DNA from: Raillietiella orientalis | Taxonomy: Eukaryota | DNA: 64,000 bases | Direction: 5' to 3' | Assembly (NCBI GenBank): GCA_036172245.1 | Contig: JAYWIR010000011.1 | Location: forward strand, 1,426,001-1,490,000 | Shown: positions 3,494 through 31,733 of the stretch, in pieces | Position numbering within the stretch: the first letter of the stretch is position 1 | Layout: every line of letters starts with the position of its first letter | The notes under the pieces: generated by a model | What the model was told of the DNA's origin: nothing | Databases searched by the model: none | What the model saw: the letters and a program-made list of their open reading frames with translations, nothing else | Made by a program: the position numbers and the translations under genes

Positions 3494-3613
3494 GTTCACG
3501 GCCATACCACGCTGAAAGCACCGCCTCTCGTTGGATCGGCGAAGTTAAGCAGCGTCGGGCCCGGTCAGTACTTGGATGGGCGACCGCCTCGGAACCCCGG
3601 GTGCCGTGAGCGA
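3494..3613 (+). rRNA. 5S rRNA: 5S rRNA gene (eukaryotic)
   Basis: GTTCACGGCCATACCACGCTGAAAGCACCG...GAAGTTAAGCAGCGTCGGGCCCGGTCAGTACTTGGATGGGCGACCGCCTCGGAACCCCGGGTGCCGTGAGC matches the metazoan 5S consensus. Helix I pairs (3494-3502 with 3603-3611). Followed by a TTTTT Pol III terminator at 3617-3621. Confidence 0.93.
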
Positions 3614-14239: not shown

Positions 14240-16160
14240 GTACGAATGCTGCGCTCCGTACCAGCACGTCGTGGAGATCATCCTGTCCACAGCCACCTTC
14301 GAGAGGGTAGACTACTGGGACGCCTTCAGGCATGTGATCCAGCAGTACGACGACAGGGACTACACTCAGAGGCGTACAGGGACAATGTTCATCCACAACA
14401 CTCCCTCTCTAAGTTCTGGGAACAGTACGCGAAGCGCTTCCAGGATCGCGACGAGAAGGACATAGGATGGCTGTAGAGACACAGCCTTCAATCCGACATC
14501 TTTTACGTCCACTACGACGGCCGAGAGTGCGGAACCTCGGAGGAGATCCTGGAAGCTTTCCCTCGCCACTACACCGAGCTCTTTCTCAAGAAGAGTCTGG
14601 ACCAGGGATCTTGAGAACGCATCCGTGGCAACCTGAATAAGTGCCTGAGTTTCCGAGAAATCAAGGTAATGCGCGCTGAATTCTCTCTGGACGACATCAG
14701 GACGGCTCTCGAGCAGCTGAGCAAGGACGCGGAGGCGGGTCCCGACAGCGTGTCCGTCACGCACTACAGGCGGCTCCTGCCCTCCTACCCCCGCCTCTTC
14801 CGCCAATTGCTGAACTGCGTCGCCAGGAAACGACGAGTGCCCGCCTCCTTCCACCGATGGATGATGCAGCTACTCTCATAGTGTGGCGGTGGGGACCTCT
14901 TCACGGCCAACCAGTGGAGGCCCATCTAGGTCCTGAACTAGATTGCGAAGTGGATGGCCAAGTTCTGGGCCAGAGGACCACAAGATCGGTGCTTTCTCCG
15001 ACGCAAACGTGCTCTGTGCCTGGCAGGCGCATGTTGGATAACATCAAGTGCGCTGGAGACCATATGGGATACAACGATGTCCTGGGAAACGACCTGGTGC
15101 TGGGCTTCACCGACATCGAGAAAGCCTTCGATTCGGTGGACCACAACATGCTGACGAACATCCTTCGCAAGTCGGCCTCCTGAAGCAGAAATCCTGCAGC
15201 ACGCGGAACGCACCCTCGAAGGATCCAGACTCCGACTGCACTGGAACGGACAGACCACAGAAGACATCAGCATGGAAAGAGGAGTCCGCCAGAGGGACGC
15301 CTTGAGTTCCATGTTGTTCATCATCAATATGGAGGTATTGATTGCCCTCGTGACCAACGAGTGACGTCTTAAAGGCATCACTCTACAAGAAAAATTCACG
15401 AGAACGCACCTGGTCTCATCACACTGAAAGGAGAACGGGATCCAAAGGCATTCCAGCTACATGGAAGGCCTCAGAAATGGCTAAGGGTGCCTCAGAAAAC
15501 AGCTTCCTATCGCCAGTGGATTTAATCCACTAGCGATTGGAACGGTGCTCTGAAGTGACCTGCCACCGGACACTCAGGATAACCACCTAATGTTTTACCA
15601 TGGAGCATCCTGAGTGGATGAAGAATGAAGCTATTCACGAGAAGAAGAGAAGAAATCTGCAGAGCATGTGGTGGCATCGATACAAGACTTCATGTTTTGA
15701 TCTGTCCCACAATGCAAACAGAGTGGCATACCCTGAAAAGGGTTATTGGGCTGCCCAACACCTCAACTATGGCGATCTTGACAGGGATGTTCCAAGGAAA
15801 TGGAACTGTTCCCTGCTATAATCCCATGGTAAGAGTGACCATCACCCTCTTCATCACCTCCATCCTTGTGCGGTGGTAGAAGATGAAGGCCACCAGGAAT
15901 GCCGTATCTCTGAAAGGGCTGATCCAGAAATAGATCGGCATCAGAAACTGCGGAAGAGTCCAGGCCTGGAACTACCGTCACATCCTGAGAAGGATTGAAG
16001 GCAGCATCCAGGCTCAAACGACGCCCAGGTAATCAAGTGCAGCAAACTTTTCAGAGACCCAAAGAAGTACACTTCAAGTGAGCAATAGTGAAGTGAAGTG
16101 CAGTTCTTTTGAAATTTTTATGAATGAGATTGTAGTGTGAATGCAAAAAGAAAAATAAAT
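14240..16160 (+). mobile_element. L1/Tx1-type non-LTR retrotransposon: RT and C-terminal zinc finger, pseudogenised
   Basis: RT domains in order: FSLDDIRTALEQLSKDAEAGPDS, QWRPI*VLN, QTCSVPGRRMLDNI, DIEKAFDSVDH, RGVRQRDALSSMLF. An internal deletion follows, then CRACGGIDTRLHVLICP...W and an A-rich 3' end at ~16145-16160. Confidence 0.9.
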
Positions 16161-20678: not shown

Positions 20679-21781
20679 CCACACACCACCGAAGCCCAGC
20701 GACGACACCAAGTAAAGCAGGGGGTCGGGAGCGCTAACATAACACCTCCGAGTACGACCGCAAGTACGACCGCATGGAGAAAGGAATTCCCCTTCTTGTT
20801 GTTGTTTTCGCTTTTCTTCGAAATAAGAGAACGGTCGAGTGTGGAGAACTTCAGCTGCGAGTTCCAAACTTTCCACCTGTCCATACTCATCTTGTCGTAA
20901 TTTGGTTCCCAATTTGAGAAAACAATAATGTGAGGTGGTTGGAAGTACTTGATCGATCCTTGATATTTTGAGGCAAACATGATGCCGTTCTTCATGGTTT
21001 CTATAAACCCATACTGGACGATCTCCTGGTTGTCCCTTGTCAGGTCGACGACGATGATGTGTTCTCCGTTATAAATGTGGGCGGCATCAGCCTTCTTGCA
21101 GCTGTGCATGTATATGGCGCCCTTCTTTAGGTAGAGAAATTTGGCAAATGTGGTTTTGCCGTGTCCACCTTCGGGATCGAAGTACCAGTATATTTTTCTG
21201 GCGTCAGGGTTTGTTCTGATGAGTTTCAGTATGTCCATCTGCCATGTACGAAGTTGGAGGCCAGCCATGGGGTTTGGGTGTAATCTGCTTCTTGTCAATC
21301 GGAAGCATTCTTTGACGAAGTTTATGTTTTTGCTGTAGAACTTCGTATGGTTTTCCAAGATGTCAAGCTCTGTGGCTCCGTTTTTAATTTGCTGGAGAAT
21401 CTGGAAGATATTGGAATTATTATCATTATAAATTATAATTACCATGTCCTGGTAGTCGGTTGTTTCTTTGTGTTGTTGTATGAGGCCGTATGTCCATGCT
21501 TCCTTATCTTCTTTTGTGCAGTACCGTAAGTTGCTTTCGGGTGATCCTTTTGCTCGTTCGAGATGTGCTTTGTCGAACGGCGGTCGTTTGAGGCTTGGCA
21601 AGGTGCGTGGATCACGCAACTGGAAATAGCCTTGCAGGTGAGGTGTTCCTGTTGTAGCTGTTTCTTTGCCAATGACTGCGTAGGTGCATTGGCGTCTGCA
21701 CCATTCTTTTATTTGTTGGAGTTCTTCTTCGAGATAATTGCAGAGCGTGAAACACCAATACAGAAAGTGTCCGTAAGGCAT
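20543..21781 (-). CDS. rep: CRESS virus replication-associated protein (HUH endonuclease + SF3 helicase); viral part 21781-20866, then read-through into flank
   Basis: Motif I WCFTLCN, motif II TPHLQG, motif III YCTK, Walker A DPEGGHGKT, Walker B IIVVDL, motif C VFSN, Arg finger MDRW; no internal stops. Candidate 42-nt intron at 21401-21442. Confidence 0.96.
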   Translation of the reverse strand: MPYGHFLYWCFTLCNYLEEELQQIKEWCRRQCTYAVIGKETATTGTPHLQGYFQLRDPRTLPSLKRPPFDKAHLERAKGSPESNLRYCTKEDKEAWTYGLIQQHKETTDYQDMVIIIYNDNNSNIFQILQQIKNGATELDILENHTKFYSKNINFVKECFRLTRSRLHPNPMAGLQLRTWQMDILKLIRTNPDARKIYWYFDPEGGHGKTTFAKFLYLKKGAIYMHSCKKADAAHIYNGEHIIVVDLTRDNQEIVQYGFIETMKNGIMFASKYQGSIKYFQPPHIIVFSNWEPNYDKMSMDRWKVWNSQLKFSTLDRSLISKKSENNNKKGNSFLHAVVLAVVLGGVMLALPTPCFTWCRRWASVVCGWRKCLNLPRKRARGVSEDRLLHLSPELHSSLRRGNTAPGSPRPL

Positions 21782-21846
21782 GATGTCTTCAGAAATTCTG
21801 TCGAGGTGAGACTGGTGTATGCCTCATGGTGTGGTGACTGCGTAGA

Positions 21847-21882
21847 AGATGCTATCTGGTTAGTATTACCCAGATAGCATCT
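21847..21882 (+). promoter_or_regulatory. Rolling-circle replication origin stem-loop with TAGTATTAC nonanucleotide
   Basis: AGATGCTATCTGG-T-TAGTATTAC-CCAGATAGCATCT: perfect 13-bp stem, nonamer at 21861-21869, lying between the rep and cap starts. Confidence 0.96.
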
Positions 21883-22125
21883 AGCTTATTCGGCAAAACC
21901 TTGGAAATTGTGTCATGTTTCAGTTTTTTATGAGGGTGTCTGGTTAATGTCCGCAGTCGTGAAGGGCTTAGGAATGCGGAACAAGATGTACTTGTCCACG
22001 TGTGCAGGTCGTGGCATGATCCGACCTCGTGGAGGGCTTAGTAAGTCGGATGGCGTGTCTGCCACCAGCCTCAGATGAGAGGGAGGGAGGGGCTCGGTGA
22101 CGTCAGTCTTCGTTGAGTCATCGGG

Positions 22126-23044
22126 GTGGCTGCACGTGGCGGTCGCCGCGCTCGTAAGAGATATGCTGCGAAGTCTCGCGGGTTTGTTGGAGAGCGTAGG
22201 CGTGTAGCTGTTAGCGGCTATTCGACTTGCAAGAAGCGAAGACGTCCGTCGTCGTCGTGTGTTGCGATTATATCGGAGGCCGCGTGGTCGTTTGTCTAGG
22301 GCGAGACGCGTTGTGAAGAGGGATGTAATGTTAAATGCTGTGCATTATTCGTCGTTGCGGTCAGCTGATGGAGATTCTGTAAATTGTTCGTGGATGTTTA
22401 CTTACGTGGAGAACGGATGGACTTTGGCTAGCGTATTGTCTGAGCTAAATTTGTCTGAGTTTGCTCGTTATTATCGTTATGTGCGATTTCGTGGAATGGC
22501 TATGAAGATAGAGCCGATGTCATTAGGTTTGACTATCGGAAATATGGCTGAAGAGTTTGGAATGAAGGTGTCATATCGCAATTTGTTGTTGTATCAGGCG
22601 TCTGCTCAAGGTGAATTTTTTTCGTCGTTGGCTGGTATGCCTTACCATAAAGTGGAGGATGTTATAAGTGGACATAAGGAGACGAGTGGTTGTATGGCTC
22701 GTTATTTCGGTGTACGTGGCATTCGTGTGTACTCGAAGGCTTATGTAAGGAAGGATATGGAATGTTTTGGTGGACAGCTGAAACGTTGGATACGATGCCC
22801 TTGGATAGATTGTGGAGAGGGTACAGGTCTTGATCGAGAGTTGAATTGTACAATGTTTGTTGGTCGTATGCATGTACTGAAGCACATGTCTGGAGTGGAC
22901 ATACCTGATTCGATAAAGGCTAGTTGCCAGTCAGGTGTATGTCCTAAAAACGGCTCGATGACTCAAGGGTACCCAATATTCAGACTGACTCGAACATTCT
23001 ACTTAGAGTTCAAGCATCTGAGAGACCCTTCCTTGTATAATTGA
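22126..23044 (+). CDS. cap: CRESS virus capsid protein (start uncertain; main frame open 22208-23044)
   Basis: Arg-rich N-terminus (VRRRRVLRLYRRPRGRLSRARRVVKR), circovirus-type jelly-roll signature SEFARYYRYVRFRGMAMKIEP and C-terminal TFYLEFK. Position opposite rep fits. A further Arg-rich segment lies in another frame from GTG at 22126. Confidence 0.85.
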
Positions 23045-26000
23045 ATACAGAAAAAACTGTTTCTACCAGGTTTTCCCCTTGCTATCATGGAACGTCATCA
23101 GCAAAATCGCCGGATCAATGCTGAATTGTACTGATTGCGTCAGCAGCATTGAACTTGGAAGAAGAAAGATTCCCTTATGTGAACTGCTTTCCAGAGTGGC
23201 TTCAGTGGATTGATGCAGTTTTTAATGCTTCAGTGCCGCTTTGCAAGATATCTCTTGTAGTAGAAATTTCTCAGTTTTCATCATGACAGGAATTAGCTCA
23301 GTGAAGGAGGGCAGAGCTTGTTTTTTTTTTTTTTTTTCTTCCTCCAAATGAAAACCCAAGGGACTCTTTGTAAGAATTGTCATTTTTTATTTCTGTACCA
23401 ACGATTTCCACATTGTTCAGTTTTCATATGCAGAACTGTAGGAAGCACAGCGGCAGCATTGTATGCACGAGCCAAAAAGTCTCAGGAAATAGGTAGGAAA
23501 TACGACAGCAAATTTCAGCAAATTTCTTTATTTGGAATGAAGATTCCAGTTGTTCATGGAAACAAAGCGCATAAGCTACTGTTTATTCTGTAAACATTTT
23601 GCATTCTAGGGAGTGTCAAGTCACAAGGTACTCTTCCAAAGTAACTTGCCATCTGTCAGCAAACCTAGAAAGAATTCTTGCTAGGTTTGCTGGCAGATGC
23701 TTGGCAATCTGCTTCTGTCATTCTAGATCTTCCAGTGCACCAAAAATAAGGATCGGGCTGAATGTTCTACATTCGGAGATGCTGCACAAACAGGTCTCTT
23801 CGTCCCAATCCACTCAAGAGAGGGGAAAGACATTCCGCAAAGCGTAATGCGCATCGATGTAAAACAAGCATGGAGCACCAGGTAAAGAGGAAACTTGGCT
23901 GTCAAACGAGAGAAGAAGAAGCGCACAGGAGAACGAAAGTGGTCTCTTTTCAGCGGTGAGCAAGTGGCTGTCATCTCGACAGATCCCCCCAAGAGCCCAA
24001 TCCTTGTTCTCATCCACAGCAAAAGTAGCCTCAAACTCAACGAGCCGACTCAGAAACAGAGGCCAACCAGCGGCTCACGAATCACTTGCAACCGAAAGTC
24101 ACCTCGAAGCAAAAGAGGTGGAGGACTAAAAAGGACGAGGGAATGGTCTCGGTCTCATGGATCGCAGGTCACCTTCCAAGTGAAAAACAACATTGTGAGA
24201 AACCCGCATGCATAGGGAAGCACGTCTCACAAATTCCAAGAGAAACTACTGAGAATTTCTTGTTCGTGCTCGAGGCAACCCGAATCTGAATGTTGAGAGC
24301 CGATGCGATGCGTGCATCAAGTGGAGGTCATAGAAGGCGCGATCCGATAACTCAGCGAGATCAGCGCATCCTCCATGAAGGCAAGCACAAGAGTGGGCAG
24401 TCCTGGGTCTTGGCAAGTGATCGACGAGCTCGCCGTCTGCCGTGCAGACAGCGCACGCCCAGAAGAACGCTCCTTCTTTTGAAAGAGTCCATTTTCTGAA
24501 TGATGGAGTGTCTTCATTAGTTTCTTCTCACCATTCATGGTTCAATCCTTCATTCTGGAAACTCGTACTGATAGGTCTATAAATGCTTTTTACTCTTCAT
24601 TGCTATTGTATAATGTTTACAACGGTTTCTTGAAATAGGGGCTTGAAAAATATCGCAATTATTTTCCTGTTTTAATTTCATATTTGTATGCAATATCTCG
24701 TGTAACGACGTGAGCGCAAGGGCGCCGCAGATTTCAAGGCTGAGGGACGCTGTCTTTCAAACTTTGGCCCCATCAGAAACCGAGCTTTGATGGCACCCTA
24801 CTAACGAGTCCCTCGAACAAACCTGCATTTCTTTGCAGCCAGTTCGAAGTCTTAGAGCTCCTTCGCCTTGCAGCAGGTTAGACTTATTTCATAGTACTGT
24901 GAAGAAGTGCGATATCCATTTATTGTGTTCCAGCATAACGGAAGCAGTTCAGCCGTTGTCGCTTCCCTCGGGTGGAATCTTATATCAGATTTTGACATCA
25001 TCAACAGCTTCGATGGTGATGCAAGAGTGAGCTCTTCCCTTCTCTTTCCCCTTTGTTTTATCATCCTTCTGGAACTCAATCCAACAAGGAAAAAAGGAGG
25101 TGGAACATGCCAATCTCTCGGGCTGATATAATCCTTTCATGGCATTCCAGACAACGAATAGATCTTGTTAGCTCAGTGCATGACTTGCGATTTTTGCCTC
25201 TAAATGGAAACACGAAGCATTCGAATTTACACCCATATTAAATTTTCATTCGTTGAATTTCCGTTTGTGAAATCCGAGCTCCTCTTTAGCATACTAATTA
25301 AAAAGAGATCAGTTCCATGGTTCTTGTGTGCCTTTATCCGATGTTGTTTTTGTCGGCTTCCAAGTCTCAAAATTTCTAATTTGTTTGGCTGGTAGCTAAC
25401 TCGAGTGAGTATCCTGGTAGCTCCTCTTCAGTTTTATTTCGTATTTTTTCCCCTTTGTTCATGCTGCAAAATCTGCAGCCTTTTTCCACCTGAGAACCAA
25501 ATACCTGCCGACACATAGCTGCAGGGCACAAGTGCCATTTTCTATGAGTTTCTGACCTATCGGGTTCGAATGCTTGACTTTTCTCGAATAAACCGATCTG
25601 AACGATTTCTTGCCTGAGATTTATTCGAACCTTCCGATGGGATGAAAAGTTGGAATGCACTTGAAAGGAAAAGAAATGCCGCACTGAATTCTTCGGGAGT
25701 TGTTGACATTTGTGCTGTGTTCTTGAAGAAACGGAAGCATACGTGTCGGTGTCGATGACGAAAACAGGCGAGTAATGTAGTACTCATGTCAATCATGCAA
25801 CTTTCATGTTCGTCACCGTTACTGTCCGCTGTAGTGTGGAATTGATGCTTAAAACTGGATCTACTTGGATGAACCCATTTTCAGTTTTCCGATTTTGTGT
25901 ACTTTAATCATGAGCCCATCCAATGTACTCTTCGGTTCCAGTGAAGAAGGCACTTAGCAGTGTTAAAAAGGGACTGTTTGCTGTCTTTGAACGCAAAATT

Positions 26001-28858: not shown

Positions 28859-31733
28859 ATGGCAGACTGGGAAGAGATAAGAAAACTTGCTGCAGACTTC
28901 CAAAGGGCTCAATCATCAGGTCCAACCCAAAAGTAGGTCCACTGTGTTCAAACTTGATGTGACCTTACTGCTAATTAAATGGGGTTTTGCAGGCTATCTG
29001 AAAAAAACTGCATTGAAGTTATAACCAAATTGCAACAGCTGAAGTTGTTAGAAGTATATTTTACTGTTGATGGCAAAGAATATGTGACTCCTAAACAGTT
29101 ATGCAAGGAAATAAGAGATGAAGTATATATTCAAGGTGATCGGAAAGAAAAGTTTTGAAAATGTTTTATGAGTAATGTCCAGGCCGAATCAACATAGTAA
29201 ATTTAGCCAAGACTCTAAATATTGATTTGAGCTGCATTGAAAGTCGTGTACCTGAAATTGTTAAAATGGACCCTAAAGTACACTTTGTTTTGGGACAGTT
29301 TGTGCATGATTGTTATTTGGATCGCATTTCTGAAGAAATTAATGAAAAGCTCCAACAAGAAGGCCACTTGTTAATAACTGACCTTGTCAAATTATATGAT
29401 TTTCCACTGGATTTTGTTCAGCAGGTTTGCATCCACTGATACTCATCTGGGGAACTTTCAGTTTAAAAATCGTACAGATGCTAAATAGCAGATTGAATCT
29501 AATTGTGCAAGGCCGAGTGGATTCCTCTTCTAACATCATCTTTACAGAAGCTCATTTATCCAGAAGTCAGGCTCATATCCTTGGTAGTTTGTCAGCTGTA
29601 ACTCGTCCAATTTCTTGTGCATATCTTATAAATTTGTATCATTTCCAAGAAAGGATTTTTTTTAGTAAGACCTCAAAATATAATTCAACATTTAATCCAT
29701 GTTATCTTCAGATATTGTAGATGAGCTGATTTCTTCTGGTAAATTAGCTGGCAGCTTAGTAGGAGGTCGTCAGTCAGTGAAAGCTGTATATGTTCCCGAG
29801 TTATATTCTCGTGCACAATCTGAATGGGTACTGCACAATCTTCTGCAGAATGGTTGTGTAGGCAAGTATTTGTTTTCAAAGTGTGAAAAGGATGGTATTT
29901 ACAGTGTATGTCCAGAATACAGTGCTTTGGGGAAACTGGGAGTCAGTGATCCAGAAGCTTTCATCAAAAGGTTGAATCCTGGGAAGGACATAGTTTATTT
30001 GTCATGGTGTTGTCTAGGCAGCTCTTTGCTGGTTCAAGTTGAAGCCTGCATTGAAGAGGTTGCCAATGAAGGTAGTGCTTGGCTTGATGTTCTGGTAAGC
30101 ATGAAGATTAGCAGTGTTATCCTAAGAAATTTTGTAGCCTGTTTTCCCAGCATCTTTCACTCCTAAGGATGTTGAGAATGTCATCAAGCATGTGCTTCTA
30201 CATATGCAAGTGGGAGCTCAGGTTGATCTTTATCAGCATTCCATTGTGGTGAACAAATCAGTTCTTGCGGAAATCTTTAAGAGATTGGAAAATGGGATGC
30301 AGGAGAGAGCTATGAAAGTGAGTTCTGTTTAAAAATTGCAAATCTGCTGATACCTGTCAAGGTAGCTCAACACAATCAACTGTACAGCAGTCAGTCTCAT
30401 GGAAAAGCACAGAAACCACAAAAGGTGGTAGAAAAATCCAAAACAGATAAGAAAGAAGAAAGACGTCGCCGAGCCATTACAGGTCATCAGGGAGGCCATC
30501 AAGGAGGAAACACAAAGGTCAGTAACTTTAGTGAATGAATAGTATTTTTGAAATTATAGTGTGCTATTATGGCTTTTCATTTTAGGGTAGAGAATCTAAG
30601 ACGAAATCAACGAAAAAGAAGACATCACATGAAATTCAAGATACTGAGGAAGAGTTAGTAAATGAAAATGTTCCATCTTTATTTACTTATATGTCAGTTG
30701 ATGAACTGCATGCCTTTTTGAAAGAGGAAACTGATTTATGTGATGCTCCAGAAAATGTTCTTCATGATGTCTCTCACACTATGTGGCCTTCTTTGTGTGC
30801 TACTTATCAAATTGTAGCCCGAGAAGCAGCTGAAGCTGCTTTATCTGCAAGTGTTGAAAAGCGACGTCAGCAACATTATCAGCTTCAAGAGCGACTGAAT
30901 ACCCAAGTTGCTATGCTGCATCTATACAAAAAAGGAATTGAGCAATTTGAGAGTGATCAACAACAGAAAGAGCTAACTTTGTACCTTTTGCGCAATGTGG
31001 GTGCAGATCTAGTGGGTTTGATTTTGCTACATTTGTCTGAAGCAGAAGCATTAGCCCTCCCTAACTCAGAGGTATTAATTCTCACTTACATTTCTTGTTT
31101 AATGTTTTCACATAAGCAACGTACCAGACTTCTTCATCAGCTTGATCCTGGACTTCAGAGTGATCTTCTCAAAATGCTTAAATGCACCTGCTTAGAGGAA
31201 TTTTTTCCTCTGCTGAATCTTTTTCTTGAAAAACCTGAGTGTGACTTGATGCTGAAAAAAATGGATCAGAGGAGAAACAAGTACGTGTGCCCTAAAAGAC
31301 TCACTTCATACAGTGTTTCTTGATAGAGAGATCTTGCAGGATCATGTAAGAGGTTTACAGGAACAACTTGAACATTCACATGAGGGACCAAATATTTTGC
31401 TTCTTTCATGCCTTCTCCTGTTCCAGTTCTATACAGGATTCATGTTGTGTGCTTCTGGGAAATTCGTTACTAATATTTTACATTTGCTAAACTCATTCAT
31501 ACCAGAAGATGTTTATCAGCTTCTGGAAGACTGTCGAGGTTAGTAACAATAATTAAAAACAAGCATTGTGTTTGTTGATAGAAATTGTAATCAAATGTGT
31601 TATGGAACAAGGAGATCCAAATAGCCATAGTGTTTCTGAAGAACAGCTACTTCGCCTGTCTTCCAGAGTGAGGACAACTGTGATTAATCTTGTGAAATCT
31701 GGAGATACTGAGAAAGCTGATAGCCAAAGATAG
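28859..31733 (+). CDS. UFL1: E3 UFM1-protein ligase 1, 12 exons, ~774 aa
   Basis: N-terminus MADWEEIRKLAADFQRAQ...KLSEKNCIEV is the UFL1 signature. Exons 28859-28932, 28993-29135, 29183-29424, 29478-29664, 29712-29861, 29916-30094, 30138-30317, 30362-30517, 30586-31071, 31117-31280, 31327-31538, 31582-31733 sum to 2325 nt in frame and end in TAG. Confidence 0.95.

Follow-up and report, generated by a model that had tools for sequence, protein, structure and literature searches.

Introduction

Whole genomes of circular Rep-encoding single-stranded DNA (CRESS-DNA) viruses have been described as integrations in Entamoeba and Giardia, and the authors of that study assume a Rep-mediated route (Kinsella et al. 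2020, PMC7493932). Here we analyse a 64,000-nucleotide (nt) stretch of the genome assembly of Raillietiella orientalis (GCA_036172245.1, contig JAYWIR010000011.1, positions 1,426,001 to 1,490,000 of the forward strand), called the window below and numbered from its first letter, which is eukaryotic DNA with one copy of a viral insert between about 20866 and 23053. As in Entamoeba and Giardia, a complete Rep plus Cap genome of a small circular single-stranded DNA virus lies in a eukaryotic contig, but there the extent of the viral DNA could be defined from free viruses at 84% and 73% nucleotide identity (PMC7493932). Unlike what the route assumed for those integrations implies, the ends of the present insert lie about 1 kb from the origin.

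The circovirus-like elements of animals, which occur in invertebrates and in vertebrates, are mostly rep fragments and often degraded, Table 1 of one survey listing 302 sequences that resemble Rep and 3 that resemble a capsid protein (Liu et al. 2011, PMC3198968), and a crustacean survey, in its account of the junctions, gives no signature of transposition or microhomology (Metegnier et al. 2015, PMC4573495). The insert shares a Circoviridae-like Rep with these elements, but here rep, origin and capsid gene stand together with open frames (PMC3198968, PMC4573495). Microhomology-mediated integration has been proposed for an anellovirus in the SKNO-1 cell line, with hepatitis B virus and papillomavirus cited as analogues (PMC13689230). 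The mechanism proposed there is the same, circular viral DNA meeting a chromosomal break and being joined through a few bases common to both, but the SKNO-1 junctions are backed by reads from many data sets, whereas the sole junction evidence here is a 5-nt match at chance level (PMC13689230).

The explanation that we favour, with a probability of roughly 0.7, is that the insert is a unit-length or nearly unit-length genome of a divergent circovirus- or cyclovirus-like CRESS-DNA virus, integrated by host end joining after one opening in the rep tail.

Results

Gene content and origin of the insert

The insert carries two genes on opposite strands with an origin stem-loop between them:

20867-21781, minus strand: Rep gene, 305 codons from the ATG to the last conserved motif MSMDRWKV, no internal stop
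21847-21882, plus strand: origin stem-loop, 13-bp stem and 10-nt loop, intact
22259-23047, plus strand: capsid gene, frame open from 22208, stop codon TAA at 23045-23047

Together, Rep, origin stem-loop and capsid gene mark the insert as the predicted genome of a circovirus-like CRESS-DNA virus (Cressdnaviricota), and the preliminary description of this locus as an essentially complete genome of such a virus embedded between non-viral DNA holds. Searches of the window with the insert by tblastn and blastn returned only the insert itself and the hairpin, indicating a single copy with no terminal redundancy.

Rep possesses both the HUH endonuclease motifs and the superfamily 3 (SF3) helicase domain by which a CRESS-DNA virus is recognized. 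The Pfam family Viral_Rep was matched at 5.1e-16 (59.1 bits, cut-off 26), and RNA_helicase scored 20.9 bits, just below its cut-off of 21.5. Alignment with 23 relatives at 32-41% identity revealed homology reaching MSMDRWKV, and the invariant columns common to Rep and these relatives include PHLQ, YC-K, G-GK and S-DR. The N-terminal endonuclease domain matches solved circovirus Rep structures (e.g. 7kii, 4.2e-14); such matches cover that domain only and are no guide to the C-terminus. The closest full-length Reps in a protein search were unnamed metagenomic sequences of 34-37% identity, while IMG/VR searched with Rep alone gave three loci (25-30% identity), JGI metagenomes three Rep loci (29-40%) and a phage collection two distant matches. 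No Rep relative exceeded about 46% (partial) or 37% (full-length) identity in the collections searched.

The variable linker that separates the endonuclease from the helicase domain of Rep contains, on the minus strand, a 42-nt AT-rich, in-frame GT...AG segment (21401-21442), at which Rep has additional residues compared with the 23 relatives. The segment could be a mini-intron, given that the introns of the host gene UFL1 measure about 46-54 nt, and the figure of 305 amino acids (aa) given earlier for the spliced Rep rests on it.

The loop of the origin stem-loop presents the nonanucleotide TAGTATTAC at 21861-21869 on the capsid-sense strand, a motif of the NANTATTAC type in its usual place within a loop. 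The structure folds at -12.9 kcal/mol (z -4.74), and none of 200 shuffles folded as well; the exact hairpin had no match in IMG/VR. Between the origin and the capsid start lie two 31-nt direct repeats (21950-21980 and 22020-22050), 77% alike and each a small palindrome, and an exact 11-nt repeat, TGACTGCGTAG, occurs at 21673-21683 and at 21835-21845, the second copy just 5' of the hairpin. These repeats could be Rep-binding iterons.

The capsid-like open reading frame (ORF) comprises 261-278 codons. Its arginine-rich N-terminus has no ATG upstream, a GTG standing at 22259 and the first in-frame ATG at 22328. Another frame also contains an arginine-rich stretch (22117-22299); the ATG upstream of it, at 22075, leads into a TGA at 22114-22116. 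This arrangement points to a start codon other than ATG, to splicing or to early decay. The Pfam family Circo_capsid scored 25.1 bits on the capsid protein, below its cut-off of 36.2, with the N-terminal part alone aligning, and phmmer found no match among 1.84 billion protein representatives. An Atlas feature search placed the protein nearest to Cressdnaviricota capsid-like clusters of 251-309 aa (score 0.95), and its single-sequence AlphaFold model was unusable (mean predicted local distance difference test score 30).

Genomes built on the Cyclovirus and Circoviridae plan, as laid down in the description of the International Committee on Taxonomy of Viruses, are ambisense and about 2 kb long, bear the nonanucleotide on the capsid-sense strand and rep on the other, have little or no 3' intergenic region and may contain an intron in rep. 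The insert shares this plan, and its loop motif TAGTATTAC is of the circovirus type. It differs from Circoviridae in the low identity of Rep to any named sequence and in a capsid protein with no phmmer relative, the likeness being one of organization.

Position of the insert ends

The analysis shows the anatomy of the insert, the positions of its ends relative to the origin and its left boundary. The ends lie 995 and 1184 nt from the nonanucleotide, with the hairpin internal, and do not fall at the nonanucleotide nick site, as they would after Rep-mediated integration. An intact origin, internal and some 1 kb away from both ends, means that the junctions were not made by Rep acting at the nonanucleotide to nick and join; as had been proposed, the circle was opened away from the nick site, in the 3' end of rep. 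Both ORFs are kept to within a few bases of their ends, and a sizeable deletion would need both ends to have stopped just short of two genes, whereas one cut in the rep tail with little loss accounts for it without coincidence. From this we infer a single break, little or no loss of sequence, and repair by the host. The circular double-stranded replicative form would have been opened once, in the non-conserved 3' tail of rep beside the 3' end of the capsid gene, and the opened circle would have been joined to a chromosomal break by host end-joining repair, either non-homologous or microhomology-mediated.

The preliminary description had gone further and taken the pentamer AAACT, found at both ends, as the point of a single crossover. 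The features needed to place the two junctions are:

20866-20870, plus strand: left copy of AAACT, abutting the last conserved Rep codon, Val305 (20869-20867)
23054-23058, plus strand: right copy of AAACT, beginning 6 nt past the capsid stop codon
20543-20866, minus strand: Rep read-through in the left flank, no family match, third residue Ser
23059-23320: right flank, CpG observed/expected 0.41 (5 observed, 12.1 expected; Poisson about 0.02)

On the left, the C-terminus of Rep sets the boundary. The last motif is carried by 117 of 120 listed relatives, and the tails after it are short and unconserved (median 11 aa, range 3-153 in the 117). The third residue past the motif is I, L, V or M in 116 of these 117 and in 65 of the 74 scorable loci among 79 IMG/VR relatives, the relatives used for this rule and for the gene architecture below being only about 30-45% identical. 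Ser at this position (+3) was found in none of 191 relatives. The Rep frame of the insert reads on into the left flank for 107 further codons, to TAG at 20545-20543, and has Ser there, so that native Rep most likely stops within three codons of Val305. With homology reaching Val305 (20867) and the read-through giving Ser at +3, the left breakpoint lies, to about 9 nt, near the place first assigned to it, and the left junction would fall within about 20859-20867. If transcribed, the read-through frame would encode a Rep-host fusion protein. A second minus-strand frame, over 20864-20463, is open for 134 codons and likewise matches no family.

The right junction would lie past the capsid stop codon (23047), probably no more than about 100 nt away. 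The virus has 110 CpG where 108.6 are expected, a ratio of 1.01, compared with 0.41 in the right flank and 0.55 in the roughly 660 nt further right (23339-24000). Since the right flank is CpG-poor like host DNA, viral sequence is unlikely to run hundreds of bases rightward; a viral extension of 50-100 nt is possible.

Several observations weigh against a unit-length circle opened once and joined here. The junctions, and integration itself, are known from the assembly. The minimal insert contains no 3' gap between the rep and capsid stops: in the 37 of 79 IMG/VR relatives that have a convergent ORF of at least 120 aa ending no more than 400 nt from the rep stop, this gap exceeds 50 nt in 29 (median 144, most 70-370 nt), and rep overlaps the convergent ORF in 7, by at least 30 nt in 2, both of them short ORFs (121 and 154 aa). 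The virus may lack the gap that its relatives have; otherwise the gap was lost or is to be found in the right flank. Furthermore, viral codon usage scores +3.31 over the first 26 codons of the flank to the left of AAACT, within the top 5% of host windows, which hints weakly that viral sequence could extend leftward; the next 81 left-flank codons score -11.7, and GC content falls near 20785.

Candidate junctions and closure of the circle

A single break without loss might have its right junction further right, with the rest of the rep tail, the rep stop codon and a short 3' intergenic region contained in 23059 to about 23200. This special case of the favoured explanation, which we put forward as a tentative possibility, would involve 0-8 nt of microhomology, for example an 8-nt direct repeat:

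20787-20794, plus strand: left copy of TTCCCCTT
23073-23080, plus strand: right copy of TTCCCCTT

Such a junction agrees with the gap of more than 50 nt in most relatives, as minus-strand stops at 23063-65, 23098-100, 23115-17 and 23140-42 would yield gaps of this kind. TTCCCCTT is longer than AAACT, and its surroundings (20782-20794 and 23068-23080) are identical at 11 of 13 positions; closure there gives a unit of 2286 nt in which Rep stops at 23065-23063, leaving 15 nt between its stop and that of the capsid gene. The fall in GC and the Rep-like score of the 26 flank codons are weak hints in favour of this repeat. They are countered by the Ser that native Rep would then have at +3, and a longest match of at least 8 nt arose in 167 of 500 shuffles. 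Markov change-point scans (orders 1-3) were uninformative, differing by a few nats and placing their best boundaries inside known viral sequence, and lend no support to viral composition left of 20866. The host-like CpG poverty of the right flank also counts against a junction further right.

Closure exactly at AAACT, again a special case of the favoured explanation, supposes that virus and host each had one AAACT and were joined there by microhomology with no loss, giving a circle of 2188 nt. It is the best single candidate for the breakpoints, although we hold it to be doubtful. The Rep tail that it would create is:

23010-23053, minus strand: candidate Rep tail under AAACT closure, antisense to the last 12 capsid codons

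Both copies of the pentamer were confirmed in the sequence, as was the frame arithmetic with TGA at 23012-23010. The proposed join splits the codon after Val305, taking one base from 20866 and two from 23053-23052, after which 13 codons (SVFNYTRKGLSDA) lead to the stop; closed Rep is therefore 305 + 14 = 319 aa, and the overlap of rep with the capsid gene is 38 nt. In favour of this closure, AAACT stands right against the Val305 codon and 6 nt beyond the capsid stop, and Val is placed at +3, in agreement with 116 of 117 relatives (chance in random sequence about 0.23, a likelihood ratio of about 4 over a random join as estimated from codon counts). A tail of 14 aa is typical, 30 of the 117 relatives having 10-20 aa, and the 13 tail codons outscore the two other frames on viral codon usage (+3.31 versus +1.48 and +0.99). 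The right flank is host-like from close to 23059, and no loss is required. On the other side, Ser is placed at +2, where none of 117 relatives has it, and an overlap of 38 nt is unusual, as only 2 of the 37 relatives, themselves distant, overlap by at least 30 nt. The log-odds of the first six tail residues are no better than random; against the tails of relatives, random peptides score as well as the closure tail or the read-through tail. Around the two copies of AAACT, similarity judged by eye amounts to 0 of 9 bases upstream and 1 of 7 downstream.

Neither the pentamer nor the restored stop exceeds what chance would give. Counting both strands, the window contains 126 copies of AAACT where 133.7 are expected, and 72 of 100 shuffles contained at least 126. 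Between a left zone of 176 nt (20700-20875) and a right zone of 221 nt (23030-23250), 31 direct matches of at least 5 nt were observed compared with a shuffle mean of 27.2, and when the zones were narrowed to 36 x 39 nt at the minimal viral ends, a 5-nt match still appeared at least once in 566 of 1000 shuffles. AAACT is only one of five repeats of 5-7 nt that begin at 20862-20870, no more than 5 nt from the left boundary. On the minus strand, the frame entered from 23053 stops after 16 codons, that from 23052 after 17 and that from 23051 after 13, and every one of the 31 candidate closures gives a near-normal Rep end, with a stop within at most 46 codons. With so many alternative repeats, and stops in every frame, attractive closures are easy to find. 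The 7-nt repeat CTTTCCA (20869/23187) illustrates how readily plausible-looking closures arise: its tail looks more Rep-like, with V-H-I after the split codon, and it was rejected because it would replace the conserved Val305.

The restored stop, which had been offered as added support, thus does not discriminate, all three frames stopping within 13-17 codons, and the 5-nt repeat, present as described, marks a crossover no better than a chance match would. What stands of the proposed single crossover without loss is the one break, which is favoured; AAACT as the crossover, the exact length of 2188 nt and zero loss are not shown.

Loss of sequence, assembly artefact and excision

That the rep tail and the 3' intergenic region were lost, through resection or deletion at end joining or in a retrocopy mediated by a long interspersed nuclear element (LINE), seems to us very improbable. 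Such a loss would account for a minimal insert with no 3' intergenic region, unlike 29 of 37 relatives, but a deletion would have had to end no more than about 10 nt from each of the two genes, which we regard as a double coincidence. The retrocopy version starts from a near genome-length capsid-sense transcript ending just past the capsid stop, with AAACT as target-site duplication. It can draw on a short A run (23051-23056) just ahead of the right repeat, on a target reading TTCC/AAAC, and on weak reverse-transcriptase and CCHC ORF fragments nearby. The A run, however, is only 3-6 nt and does not amount to a 3' poly(A) accompanied by a target-site duplication, the presence of an origin and of an antisense rep gene does not suit an mRNA, and a purely host AAACT would leave the conserved Val305 codon partly host-encoded.

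An assembly artefact, in which viral DNA from an infected or contaminated sample entered a host contig through a chimeric read or misassembly, is likewise highly unlikely. The viral genes and hairpin look undamaged, as in a free virus, viral CpG is undepleted, and the junctions depend on the assembly, all of which would fit an artefact. Against it, long non-viral sequence lies on both sides within one contig, the insert is a single unit and no concatemer, and free viral circles normally assemble as separate small contigs. An origin of AAACT purely as target-site duplication of an integrase or transposase was rejected, since both enzymes are absent and part of the Val305 codon would come from the host.

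The suggestion that the circle could in principle excise is unlikely to be right for an insert with one origin copy and flanks sharing 5 nt only. For rolling-circle replicons, a single origin copy between 5-nt repeats offers no obvious release route.

The host flanks

Both flanks are non-viral and contiguous with the viral DNA within the assembled window, as in an endogenous viral element, and no viral Pfam family was found among the 109 plus-strand and 75 minus-strand ORF pieces flanking the insert. The other annotated features of the window are:

3494-3612: complete 5S rRNA gene, 102 bits
20022-20384, minus strand: ORF with a CCHC zinc knuckle, about 480 nt from the insert
28979-31323: UFL1 (E3 UFM1 ligase) gene with very short introns

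The insert lies about 5.9 kb upstream of UFL1, the exons of which begin at 28979. Two UFL1 pieces had no homologues in a word-limited protein search, and the host may therefore be poorly sampled. The CCHC ORF is nearest to Atlas clusters of uncharacterised, mostly arthropod proteins and of ZCCHC3-like RNA-binding proteins, and is possibly a remnant of a retroelement ORF1. A weak reverse-transcriptase fragment is found at 14680-15183. The left flank contains a 12-nt tandem duplication, AGTACGACCGCA, in two copies (20751-20774), and the right flank a T17 run (23321-23337). Repeats of at least 60 nt, sought as paralogous flank copies that could serve as a proxy for the empty site, were absent from the window, in which the flank sequences match only themselves and poly-T.

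Discussion

Whole-genome CRESS-DNA integrations are rare compared with rep fragments, and integration is commonly assumed to be Rep-mediated. In the insert described here, the intact internal origin and the ends in the rep tail point to host end joining. The claim of an exact 5-nt crossover at present adds nothing beyond chance; the main value of the locus is its evidence against origin-based integration, together with its very divergent capsid.

A bolder form of the favoured explanation sees the insert as a germline copy of an unsampled cyclovirus-like lineage, very recent, unit-length and complete in sequence, captured by microhomology-mediated end joining in the rep tail. We consider this unlikely as a whole. 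If true, it would provide a clean, datable example of the repair-mediated endogenisation of a CRESS-DNA virus. The insert links a very divergent virus to a host, and on this reading the host chromosome would hold the complete genome of a virus that has never been sampled in free form.

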